A stretch of 1,026 nt of DNA, from assembly GCF_003334405.1 (NCBI RefSeq), contig NZ_QOWM01000050.1; one strand, written 5' to 3'. Below, piece after piece: positions 1 through 1,026 of the stretch (position 1 is the first letter of the stretch; each line of letters opens with the position of its first letter). The position numbers were made by a program, and so were the translations under genes. The notes beneath the pieces are model-generated. The model was not told the origin of the DNA, did no database searches, and was given only the letters and a program-made list of their open reading frames with translations. Origin of the DNA: Escherichia coli. Lineage in GTDB: Bacteria; Pseudomonadota; Gammaproteobacteria; Enterobacterales; Enterobacteriaceae.

Positions 1-48
1 GTTTAATACGGTATTCCTGTTCTACATGCACACCCATAACTCACCTTA

Positions 49-549
49 TCAAAATCTGTTCACTACAGCAGTCACCAGAGTTTCTAACTGTTTCGCTGTT
101 TGCTGACAAATATTAAGCGCATCATTAATTTCCTTTCTGAATTCAGGATCGTTAACAATACAAAATCTGTCACCACTAATGATATAATGAACATTGCGTC
201 CGAGTTTGTTAATTTCCGTTTTAAGTCTCCTGATTTCTTTAATCTCATCAGGATAAAGACAGACTTCATTTTTTAACAAAGACTGACGTACACGAATAGC
301 AATTTCTCTGCTCATGCTCATGCCGTGAAGGACAGCATTACGTTTAACAAGTTCTATTTCATGAGGGTAGAGATAAGTGAAAACTGGTTTTGCAGCCTCA
401 TTCTTAACAGGAATAGATACTGGCTTTGTTGGTACATCAAGAACTTTCATTTTTGCGAATACATTTACACTATCAACTCCATATGAAGCTGCATTTACTC
501 TCGCAAGTTCATATTCATCATCATTTAATCTAAAACATACATTTTTCAT
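49..549 (-). CDS. Hypothetical DNA-binding protein with tandem ribbon-helix-helix (RHH)-like repeats; 166 aa from the ATG at 547-549 (track ORF 49..624 uses an upstream TTG)
   Basis: Uninterrupted minus-strand reading frame ending in TGA at 49-51. In-frame ATG at 547-549 is preceded by GGTGA (554-558), a plausible Shine-Dalgarno. I spot-checked the track translation against the sequence (residues GMSMS at 310-324; C-terminal NRF at 52-60). The protein has repeated modules of a short hydrophobic strand followed by an acidic helix (VCFRLNDDEYELARVNAASYGVDSVNVFAKMKVL; VFTYLYPHEIELVKRNAVLHGMSMSREIAIRVRQSLL), each with a G-x-(D/S)-x-S turn typical of CopG/Arc/MetJ-type RHH domains. The gene could not be matched to a named family from memory. 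Confidence 0.6.
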   Translation of the reverse strand: MKNVCFRLNDDEYELARVNAASYGVDSVNVFAKMKVLDVPTKPVSIPVKNEAAKPVFTYLYPHEIELVKRNAVLHGMSMSREIAIRVRQSLLKNEVCLYPDEIKEIRRLKTEINKLGRNVHYIISGDRFCIVNDPEFRKEINDALNICQQTAKQLETLVTAVVNRF

Positions 550-553
550 TCTT

Positions 554-558
554 TCACC
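554..558 (-). promoter_or_regulatory. Candidate ribosome-binding site (GGTGA) for the ATG at 547-549
   Basis: Minus-strand sequence reads ...ctctatGGTGAaagaATGaaaaat...; GGTGA matches the 3' part of the AAGGAGGTGA consensus, 4 nt before the ATG. Confidence 0.35.
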
Positions 559-563
559 ATAGA

Positions 564-598
564 GCCTGCGGCAGGCACAGGCAAAAACATCGTTTTTG
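564..598. promoter_or_regulatory. Pair of inverted repeats just upstream of the RBS: GCCTGC-g-GCAGGC (564-576) and CAAAAAC-atc-GTTTTTG (582-598); candidate operator
   Basis: Both are perfect inverted repeats read directly from the sequence. The CAGGC motif occurs three times: once inverted (564-568) and twice direct (572-576, 578-582). They lie between the candidate promoter and the ATG, where RHH repressors typically bind. Confidence 0.3.
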
Positions 599-611
599 GA
601 CAATCTACTGA

Positions 612-627
612 AAATTGCATGCAATTT
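612..627. promoter_or_regulatory. 16-bp perfect palindrome AAATTGCATGCAATTT; candidate protein-binding site overlapping the candidate -10
   Basis: Positions 612-627 are exactly self-complementary across a GCATGC core. A perfect 16-mer palindrome is unlikely by chance in 1 kb (rough expectation on the order of 0.01-0.02). Confidence 0.35.
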
Positions 628-642
628 CTAGTGGATTGTCTA
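614..642 (-). promoter_or_regulatory. Candidate sigma70-like promoter for the RHH-repeat gene: -35 TAGACA (637-642), 17-bp spacer, -10 TGCAAT (614-619)
   Basis: Hexamers and spacing read on the minus strand. The -35 is a 5/6 match to TTGACA; the -10 is only a 4/6 match to TATAAT and lacks the conserved A at position 2. An alternative is -10 TATAGT (658-663) with a weak -35 TTTATA (682-687, 18-bp spacer). Neither is strong; this is a prediction only. Confidence 0.2.
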
Positions 643-777
643 TCCTGCATTGATTGTACTATATGTGGCGCTGTGCCTAGCTATAAAATCGTCGCTGCAT
701 ATGTCCAGATTTCGTTGCTGAAAGGTTCTTTCGTCTTCGACCATCTGGCAAACGTATAGCTGAAAGATTTGTGAAAG

Positions 778-801
778 AAAAAACAAGCCTGGCAGGGCTG
801 G
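778..801 (-). terminator. Possible weak terminator for the upstream minus-strand gene: short stem (AGCC/GGCT) followed by a T6 run on the minus strand
   Basis: Minus strand reads ...ccAGCCctgccaGGCTtgTTTTTTcTTTc (A-run 778-783 on the plus strand). The stem is only 4-5 bp, so this is marginal. Confidence 0.2.
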
Positions 802-806
802 GAATT

Positions 807-833
807 GTTACGGCTGAAGCCGTAACGCTTTTT
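807..833 (+). terminator. Intrinsic-terminator-like structure: 8-bp stem GTTACGGC/GCCGTAAC with TGAA loop, then GC + TTTTT
   Basis: Perfect inverted repeat 807-814/819-826 followed by a T5 run at 829-833 on the plus strand. No plus-strand gene is evident upstream, so its function is unclear. The same stem forms on the minus-strand transcript but is followed there by AAUU, not a U-run. Confidence 0.3.
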
Positions 834-860
834 AAGTCCTCGCTGCGCTGCGGGGCTTCC

Positions 861-894
861 GGCGCAAAGCGCCTCCCATGCCCTTACAGGGCAT
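861..894. repeat. Two adjacent short GC-rich stem-loops in the 3' region of the upstream gene: GGCGC-aaa-GCGCC (861-873) and ATGCCCT-tac-AGGGCAT (878-894)
   Basis: Both are perfect inverted repeats read from the sequence. They lie 16-49 nt downstream of the TAA at 910-912 on the minus strand. Neither is followed by a U-run, so they are more likely 3'-end stabilising structures or protein sites than canonical terminators. Confidence 0.3.
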
Positions 895-909
895 AAGAAA
901 CAAGGGCAA

Positions 910-1026
910 TTAAGCCCCTGCGCGATGATTGCTGACTTCTTTTTCCAGAGCCTTATTAACAAAGGCGTTCAGTGATAAATCTTCTTCCATCGCCATTTCT
1001 GCTACCCGACGATGCAGTTCTGGATC
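910..1026 (-). CDS. 3' end of a gene truncated at the window edge; C-terminal RHH-type DNA-binding domain resembling the C-terminus of HicB-family antitoxins
   Basis: Reverse complement of 913..1026 translates in frame with the window edge to DPELHRRVAEMAMEEDLSLNAFVNKALEKEVSNHRAGA, followed by TAA at 910-912. The pattern P-x-LH-x-x-(hydrophobic)-A-x-x-A-x-E-x-x-SLN-x-(F/Y/W)-(V/I) is the helix-turn-helix half of an RHH fold as I recall it from HicB-type and related antitoxins. The N-terminal part of the protein is outside the window, so the family call is tentative. It is absent from the ORF track because no start codon lies inside the window. Confidence 0.55.
   Translation of the reverse strand, partial: DPELHRRVAEMAMEEDLSLNAFVNKALEKEVSNHRAGA

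Follow-up and report, generated by a model that had tools for sequence, protein, structure and literature searches.

Between the antitoxin gene hicB and the transfer origin of an IncX4 plasmid lies a compact cluster of hairpins, and the question raised by this locus is what the cluster does. We analyzed it within a 1,026-nt stretch of Escherichia coli DNA (hereafter, the window), for which a preliminary description had proposed that the hairpins terminate transcription in both directions and insulate a neighboring gene, with some resemblance to dispersed intergenic repeats. Our comparative analysis points to a different function: positions 792-901 probably constitute an unannotated G site, a signal of the G4 type for single-strand initiation (ssi) that needs only the host primase DnaG. 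The novelty of this assignment is limited, as G sites have been known as a class since the late 1980s; what is new here is one more member, in a new context.

Results

The hairpin cluster lies beside oriT in the IncX4 backbone

The window is 99.9% identical to E. coli IncX4 plasmids, and we took its gene calls from the RefSeq annotation of one plasmid at this level of identity, pEC00704_5. It is IncX4 plasmid backbone, with the 3' end of hicB, oriT, ddp1/taxA, and the start of taxC (Table 1). The minus strand carries every gene of the window, and from plasmid position 500 to 22,518 the annotated genes are on the minus strand only. No plasmid primase is annotated on the IncX4 plasmid. For IncX plasmids, in which ddp1 corresponds to taxA and ddp2 to taxC, the alpha and beta replication origins have been described as having long inverted repeats that enclose the two transfer origins (PMC3332091). 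In agreement with this layout, window positions 561-666 are duplicated in inverted orientation, at 94% identity, at plasmid positions 25222-25327, which is 6.9 kb off and beyond the replication initiator gene. Only 561-666 is duplicated in the plasmid, which rules out the hairpin element as a part of the duplicated oriT repeat.

Table 1. Features of the window discussed in the text. A slash in the nick motif marks the predicted cut.
Feature	Coordinates	Strand	Sequence or basis
taxC relaxase gene, 5' end (first codons)	1..37	-	RefSeq annotation
ddp1/taxA, relaxosome accessory protein	49..603	-	RefSeq annotation of 99.9% identical plasmid
oriT inverted repeat	599..640	+	21-nt arms, 86% complementary
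Predicted relaxase nick site, cut after G647	641..648	+	TATCCTG/C (TATCCTGC); motif directly 3' of inverted repeat
Sigma-70-like promoter upstream of ddp1/taxA	658..687	-	TTTATA-18-TATAGT, 9/12 positions, consensus match only
Unpaired 3' tail with proposed start block	785..806	-	AATTCCCAGCCCTGCCAGGCTT; single-stranded in minus-strand fold
Proposed DnaG initiation triplet	793..795	-	CTG (5'-3'); 11 nt past hairpin I, unpaired in fold
Hairpin I	807..826	-	GTTACGGC-ttca-GCCGTAAC on minus; adjoins proposed primer start
Hairpin IV	838..855 (arms 838-843/850-855)	-	CCCCGC-agcgca-GCGAGG; C.A mismatch on minus, T.G on plus
Hairpin II	861..873	-	GGCGC-ttt-GCGCC on minus (GGCGC-aaa-GCGCC on plus)
Hairpin III	878..894	-	ATGCCCT-gta-AGGGCAT on minus (ATGCCCT-tac-AGGGCAT on plus)
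Hairpin spanning hicB stop codon, candidate hicAB terminator	900..921	-	tail TTCTTAT; terminator scan
hicB antitoxin gene, 3' end	910..1026	-	RefSeq annotation of 99.9% identical plasmid

RP4-type transfer origins have the nick consensus YATCCTG/Y, located 3' of the inverted repeat on the nicked strand. By this consensus, the relaxase would cut the plus strand of the window after G647. An R6K-type (IncX2) plasmid that carries an R6K gamma origin has the same order of repeat and TATCCTGC at each of its two oriT copies. A plus-strand nick would make plus the transferred strand and would place the leading region toward higher coordinates. This polarity agrees with the rule that leading-region genes take the transferred strand as their template (PMC11541004), because hicAB and the genes beyond it are on the minus strand. 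The hairpin element of the IncX4 plasmid lies 146 nt beyond the predicted nick (647/648), on what would be the non-transferred strand. The association is a recurrent one: TATCCTGC occurs 84-224 nt from the hairpin element, in fixed relative orientation, at five loci in four plasmid groups, namely, the window locus and four others, in a second IncX4 lineage, a Providencia plasmid, Erwinia dacicola, and Pantoea. The expected chance of finding one 8-mer within 500 nt is <1%.

A single element of about 110 nt recurs in several plasmid families

We searched 72,556 plasmids with positions 770-910 by sensitive BLAST and found related copies in 1,550 plasmid records, with approximately 1,100 of these outside IncX4 at 80-90% identity. 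The non-IncX4 matches always span approximately 792-901, defining a single conserved element of about 110 nt, and homology stops at the element borders, just past the tail of the minus strand. The earlier suggestion that the segment 861-894 might recur elsewhere was thus right in spirit. Among the records listed, from plasmids and from E. coli, none has an annotated feature for the element, a comparison of the window with all Rfam families gave only chance matches far below threshold, and BLAST against phages gave no match to the element. Repeats in Bacteroidetes metagenome bins and one Betaproteobacteria contig, which a scan of a genome collection also returned, have only a 23-27-nt core in common with the element, and we left them out of the family.

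The resemblance to REP or ERIC repeats noted previously did not hold up, and we rejected these and other dispersed chromosomal repeats as candidates. The element is present in one copy in the IncX4 plasmid, and in 5,426 complete E. coli genomes we found it at 330 places, of which 314 are on plasmids, with a median of one place per genome having any.

Outside IncX4, the element occurs in distinct genetic settings. In three different IncFII-type replicons it lies 774-807 bp downstream of repA, in the orientation of repA sense, and starts 180-187 nt past the second of two ter sites. In IncX-like plasmids it lies beside oriT. In IncN it is found, as copies 89% identical, within the long repeats that head leading-region operons, in operon sense and directly upstream of a 113-bp promoter-proximal block that is itself repeated four times. 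These long repeats are the CUP (conserved upstream) repeats of IncN leading regions (Delver & Belogurov 1997; PMC5371602, PMC6289460) and have been described as ArdK-regulated double-stranded promoters (PMC5371602, PMC6289460); the element corresponds to the distal part of the CUP only. Overall, it is found in both orientations relative to neighboring genes, and one plasmid carries an inverted pair. An insulator between convergent genes does not fit an element that sits in three unrelated gene contexts with varied orientation to its neighbors.

The hairpins are conserved by compensatory change, with wobble pairs on the minus strand

Three of the stems in the preliminary description (807-826, 861-873, and 878-894) are as described there, and each folds better than shuffled sequence. 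Folded as single-stranded DNA, they reach -8.0, -6.0, and -6.6 kcal/mol, respectively, with z-scores against dinucleotide shuffles of -4.9, -2.7, and -3.8. The plus-strand arms of 807-826, GTTACGGCT and AGCCGTAAC, have nine complementary bases each, which realistically form an 8-bp stem with a tetraloop. Read 5' to 3', the minus strand presents hairpins III, II, IV, and I, followed by unpaired AATTCCCAGCC-CTG-CCAGG. Hairpin IV was absent from the earlier list, and 792-901 had not been recognized as a single conserved unit. For the whole of 792-901, the z-score against dinucleotide shuffles is -2.7 for minus and -3.4 for plus; the fold energy of the window copy is likewise slightly better on plus (-28.8 versus -25.0 kcal/mol).

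In plain MAFFT alignments, the right half of the R100 element and the 5' arm of hairpin III were out of place, and we therefore used an alignment to a covariance model, built on the minus strand, together with an anchor-based hairpin census. Twenty-four copies score 90-139 bits with this model. Among 23 distinct copies, 92.2% of cells pair, a percentage inflated by the fitting of the alignment to the model. Both sides change in 8 of the 20 pairs, and these double changes are not inflated in this way. The covariation score is 0.238, versus 0.114 in shuffled alignments, and none of 500 shuffles reaches 0.238. Controls in which the partner was slid pair at 25-41% only.

Compensatory change is most extensive in hairpin III, where five of the seven pairs change on both sides (ATGCGC/GCGCAT, ATGCCGT/ACGGCAT, and ATGCCC/GGGCAT, with ATGCCGC/GCGGCAT in R100). 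Hairpin II pairs in 99.1% of cells around a loop that varies freely, and has the compensatory forms GGCGT/ACGCC and GTCGC/GCGAC. In hairpin I, the outer G-C pair is replaced by A-T in seven copies. Both arms of hairpin IV are invariant in 23 of 23 copies while its loop varies; its pairing, without covariation, is a prediction, and it lies where R100-type elements have a hairpin after their GAAGC block. The CTG triplet is kept at its column in 20 of the 23 distinct copies, two of the exceptions being truncated beside an IS110 element.

The two strands differ in their mismatches. In the anchor-based census of stems I-III, 415 cells are Watson-Crick, 16 are G.T when read on minus, no cell would be G.T on plus, and three are other mismatches. 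The G.T cells, 13 of which are in hairpin I, trace to about six or seven separate changes. These wobble pairs provide moderate evidence that selection for folding has acted on the minus strand. In favor of a plus-strand fold are the T.G pair in hairpin IV and a long-range helix between 785-795 and 848-858, in which 83% of cells pair on plus with G.T counted, versus 56% on minus; both are almost without covariation. We considered this helix as evidence for a plus-sense RNA and set it aside, as it is nearly invariant and its pyrimidine pattern, the complement of a start block also carried by phage origins, is accounted for equally well by conservation of that block for primase.

The minus-strand tail resembles phage primer starts and the R100 tail

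E. coli DnaG initiates at d(CTG). In the record of phage G4, the RNA primer of the complementary-strand origin is annotated at 3970-3997, which places its start on the T of a CTG (3996-3998) that immediately follows a hairpin on the 3' side. The template strand of the G4 origin and the minus strand of the window element have the same order of parts, i.e., hairpins and then a single-stranded CTG, although hairpin I and CTG are 11 nt apart in the element and the corresponding distance in G4 is 3 nt. The likeness extends to the start block. The 10-mer CTGCAAAGCC, which stands at the primer start of G4, is present unchanged in the IncN, Providencia, and Cedecea copies, and CTGCTAAGCCC, present in the IncFII(K) copies, is the exact block at the alpha3 origin. 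In a regular-expression search, the start-block motif had a single match in each of the two phage genomes (G4 and alpha3), at the origin. The start block of the window itself, CTGCCAGGCT, agrees with that of G4 in 7 of its 10 positions and with that of R100 in 8. The hairpin domains of G4 and alpha3 have no detectable similarity to those of the element, and the likeness is confined to the start block. For plasmid G sites as a group, Tanaka et al., in 1994, reportedly found only limited homology to phage origins, near the primer start. We note that the IncX4 plasmid also has CTGCAAAGCC, in a weaker match of the R100 type.

Among plasmid systems, the closest comparison is with the IncFII replication origin. 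In 1989, Masai and Arai reportedly identified the leading-strand start of R1 and R100 as a G site approximately 400 bp downstream of oriR that is used by primase alone. Two ter sites lie between oriR and the leading-strand start site of R1 (PMC10331603). Past the two ter sites of R100, the minus strand reads ATGCCGC-atca-GCGGCAT-GGAAGGCGG...CCCCAGCCCTGCCAGACC. The covariance model finds this R100 element weakly (16 bits, E about 0.008, the E-values of the model being rough), and by its position it may be the published G site. It has in common with the window family CCCCAGCCCTGCCAG, the start block CCCAGCCCTGCCAG, and the distal hairpin ATGC...GCAT-GGAAGGCG, and its tail CCCCAGCCCTGCCAGACC resembles the window tail AATTCCCAGCCCTGCCAGGCTT. 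Tanaka et al. also reportedly found, in 1994, blocks A-C common to plasmid G sites in outer domains I and III of the R100 G site. The middle portions differ: R100 has a long second hairpin and CCGGC-gtaa-GCCGG, whereas in the window subfamily the middle is occupied by GGCGC-nnn-GCGCC, an invariant hairpin with arms CCCCGC/GCGAGG, and the 8-bp hairpin of GTTACGGC.

The surroundings of the IncFII homologues can be compared in the same way. In position and orientation they coincide with the R100 element, just past the ter sites, where leading-strand synthesis of R1 is expected to begin. Synthesis from their minus-strand CTG would run away from oriR, which fits the unidirectional replication of R1, and they lie on the template of the continuously made strand. 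The IncFII G site adjoins oriR and the window element adjoins oriT, yet the geometry of the two is alike, with a start of unwinding followed shortly downstream by a primase entry site; for the window this holds if the nick and the direction of unwinding are as predicted.

A second plasmid comparison is R6K, an IncX2 plasmid of the same family, in which the locus is also the same one: it is flanked by oriT and the leading region and lies upstream of ddp1/taxA. According to other papers that cite Nomura 1991, ssi signals have been reported in R6K, R100, F, and ColE2. In the IncX2 plasmid, we found CTGGCAGGGGG / CCCCCTGCCAGACC on the same strand as in the window element, 161 nt from the nick and preceded by hairpins and a GAAGCCC block. 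This locus is otherwise unalignable with the window element.

A working model for priming at the element

From these likenesses we infer dependence on primase, the exact primer start, and a role in replication or transfer, as follows. On a minus strand that has become single-stranded and is coated with SSB, hairpins 894-878, 873-861, 855-838, and 826-807 would persist and present the 3' tail ...CCCAGCC-CTG-CCAGG to the host primase DnaG. DnaG would start an RNA primer opposite T794 (pppAG...), and DNA polymerase III would extend it toward higher coordinates. Located on the retained strand and pointing along the direction of duplex opening, such a site would support continuous synthesis behind the unwinding machinery. 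Two uses are possible, separately or together: (i) leading-strand synthesis from an alpha origin of the R6K type, which coincides with oriT, and (ii) synthesis of the replacement strand in a conjugating donor. The best-known role of an ssi, priming on the incoming strand, counts against this reading, as the IncX4 site is on the predicted non-transferred strand; it may have this use too if transfer begins instead at the other oriT copy, which is inverted. IncN differs in this respect, since the folding strand of the element is there the transferred strand and in IncX4 the retained one.

Alternatives to a primase site

We considered three other classes of function. The first, which we regard as unlikely, is that of a transcription terminator or insulator: 807-826 with its T5 would stop plus-strand transcripts, the structured region with T6 (783-778) would stop read-through from hicAB into oriT/taxA, and in IncN the hairpin would end one leading-region operon before the promoter of the next CUP. 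Both T runs on which the bidirectional proposal was based are there: past the 8-bp stem the plus strand has T5 at 829-833, and past the weak stem the minus strand has T6, which reads as A6 at 778-783 on plus. A terminator scan of the window listed two sites (806-827 on plus and 921-900 on minus), compared with 0.6 +/- 0.8 in shuffled sequence. The plus-strand site, 806-827 with CTTTTTAAGT (CTTTTT after a GC-rich hairpin), is terminator-like, and this portion of the proposal stands. Its T run, 3' of hairpin I, is kept in most homologues, and counts against the G-site assignment in that a G site does not obviously require it. In addition, the IncN element is immediately upstream of the 113-bp block in operon sense, and several IncX-like copies have a T-rich run after the element on the minus strand.

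The rest of the proposal fared less well. No plus-strand gene is annotated upstream in IncX4 (plasmid 500-22,518), leaving none to read into the plus-strand "terminator," and 13 stem-I cells would be A.C mismatches in a plus-sense RNA, Erwinia and Pantoea with GUCACGGC/GCCGUAAC being one example. The weak stem of the minus strand, AGCC/GGCT, is present with 4 bp, at 786-789/796-799, approximately 2 nt to the left of the 788-801 originally assigned to it; it is unconserved in homologues and fails the terminator scan. The hairpin at 921-900, which is outside the cluster and belongs to the minimum-free-energy fold of the minus-strand RNA, is a more plausible terminator for hicB. Termination also leaves unexplained the other conserved hairpins, the spacer blocks that do not vary, the tail with its CTG, the start blocks identical to those of phage origins, and the fixed placement after the ter sites in IncFII. 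The T run, the T.G pair in hairpin IV, the long-range helix, and the slightly better plus-strand fold of the window copy leave room for a secondary terminator function of the element, notably in IncN. The plus sense of the element is operon sense there.

The second class, a structured RNA, is very unlikely, whether as a small RNA or hicAB 3' untranslated region (minus sense) or as a leader or antisense RNA (plus sense). A conserved RNA would be expected to have compensatory changes and wobbles of the G.U type, the minus-sense RNA folds at -66.5 kcal/mol (z = -3.3), and the long-range helix in the plus sense is rich in G.U pairs. Against this, no Rfam family matches; homology ends at the element borders, so that no promoter or terminator is conserved along with the element; the orientation to neighboring genes varies, including the inverted pair in one plasmid; and the conserved block has no U run after the minus-sense structure.

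The third class, a different ssi, either a phiX174-type site at which the primosome assembles with PriA or a single-stranded promoter for RNA polymerase resembling Frpo, is highly improbable: both kinds are hairpin-rich and found near plasmid origins and in leading regions (PMC7690428, PMC11541004), but the identity with DnaG-dependent phage start blocks and the CTG point to direct recognition by primase, and Frpo is about 300-330 nt long with -35 and -10 boxes rebuilt inside a long hairpin, whereas the element is 110 nt and without such boxes. We specifically rejected an Frpo-type promoter on this size and anatomy, together with the lack of similarity to ColIb Frpo1 and of any promoter-like site scored in the element.

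Discussion

If 792-901 is a G site, as we think probable, it would suggest a link between the opening of oriT, the R6K-type alpha and beta origins, and priming in both donor and recipient. As a primase entry site, the element would also mark the probable start of synthesis at the IncFII origins of Klebsiella plasmids, and the covariance model can be used to annotate it. The plasmids concerned are of medical interest. IncX4 plasmids are major carriers of mcr-1, and one of the matching plasmids is named for this gene; IncFII(K) and IncN plasmids that have the element are major carriers of carbapenemase genes. If the element proved essential for establishment or copy number, it would represent a conserved cis-acting target common to several families of resistance plasmids.

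We also put forward, tentatively and as a less than even prospect, a broader arrangement in which G sites are placed systematically on both strands of conjugative plasmids that have no primase of their own: (i) a retained-strand site 85-225 nt from the MOBP3 nick, for priming of the replacement strand in the donor or firing of the alpha origin from an oriT opened by the relaxosome; and (ii) transferred-strand sites directly upstream of leading-region promoters. Were this true, host DnaG would make the promoter and the early genes duplex within seconds of entry, the transferred-strand sites would be a primase-based counterpart of Frpo in early establishment, and there would be a concrete answer to how conjugative DNA synthesis is primed in the donor. 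Candidates for transferred-strand sites are two 420-bp repeats of the IncX4 plasmid, at 20.6 and 22.7 kb, with plus-strand elements at 20570-20712 and 22648-22790, and the CUP repeats of IncN.

Further G-site-like elements and a duplicated oriT core on an IncX4 plasmid

Using the covariance model built on the element, we identified two further R100-type G-site-like elements on the IncX4 plasmid L008 (E ~4e-4); in the orientation of the window, they lie on its right-hand side at distances of ~2.2 and 4.3 kb (see table). They read ATCCGC-gtaa-GCGGAT-GGAAGGGGC...CACCCTGCAAAGCCC and ...CGCCCTGCTAAGCCC, and we infer that both lie on the transferred strand. Each is enclosed in one of two 420-bp direct repeats located upstream of minus-strand leading-region genes; one of these repeats overlaps a CDS annotated 'DnaJ'. 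The same plasmid also has a separate hairpin (28195-28250, plus strand; GTCACTT-gaaagca-AAGTGAC), after which comes CCTCCCTTGCTGCAAAGCC, again identical to the 10-mer at the phage G4 primer start. This site adjoins a palindrome of 45 bp close to the partition genes.

The oriT core, consisting of an inverted repeat with 21-nt arms and TATCCTGC, occupies window positions 561-666 and recurs in inverted orientation at L008 25222-25327. The two oppositely oriented copies flank the replication region, an arrangement like that of R6K oriT alpha/beta, and transfer from either would lead into the same 6.9-kb segment.

Coordinates of G-site-like elements and associated features
Feature	Record	Position	Strand	Model score
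R100-type G-site-like element	L008 (NZ_OP378631.1)	20570-20712	+	~17 bits
R100-type G-site-like element	L008 (NZ_OP378631.1)	22648-22790	+	~17 bits
R100-type G-site-like element	L004	2730-2873	-	19 bits
R100-type G-site-like element	L015	230-373	-	19 bits
Element copy	L010	3010-3133	-	
Element copy	L010	4914-5037	+	
Repeats with element, IncN plasmid	L003	4669-5235; 7473-8039		
CUP repeats, 113-bp promoter-proximal block	L003	2283-2384; 5123-5235; 6087-6198; 7927-8039		
Hairpin across hicB stop codon (910-912), GCAGGGGC-ttaatt-GCCCTTGT	Window	900-921	-	

Related elements on other replicons

In the IncN plasmid L003, the transferred strand carries the folding strand of the element, and the promoter-proximal block of the CUP repeats, which head leading-region operons, lies directly downstream. 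Priming here would render the promoter and downstream operon double-stranded first. The Providencia plasmid L010 has two element copies, separated by 1.8 kb and located next to a ddp1/MobP1 oriT; because they are inverted relative to each other, each strand has one putative priming site. In L004 and L015, the main element has a truncated CTG end, adjoining an IS110-family transposase, and the R100-type match in L004 lies ~1.3 kb downstream of an IncFIA repE gene.

Contigs binned as Bacteroidetes MAGs (L018-L021, L026, and L027) contain a multi-copy repeat (...GATCTGCGTAAGTGGCGCAGCCGGAAACCCCGCAGCGCAGCGAGGAGTTGCAGGCGAAG...) that shares with the element a 27-nt core, corresponding to the spacer plus hairpin IV (window 838-855). 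None of the element's other stems is present in this repeat, which has no match in Rfam.

A hairpin at the hicB stop codon

The hairpin across the hicB stop codon contains G.U pairs that form in the minus sense only and has a poor U tail (UUCUUAU). It is the likelier candidate for the hicAB terminator.
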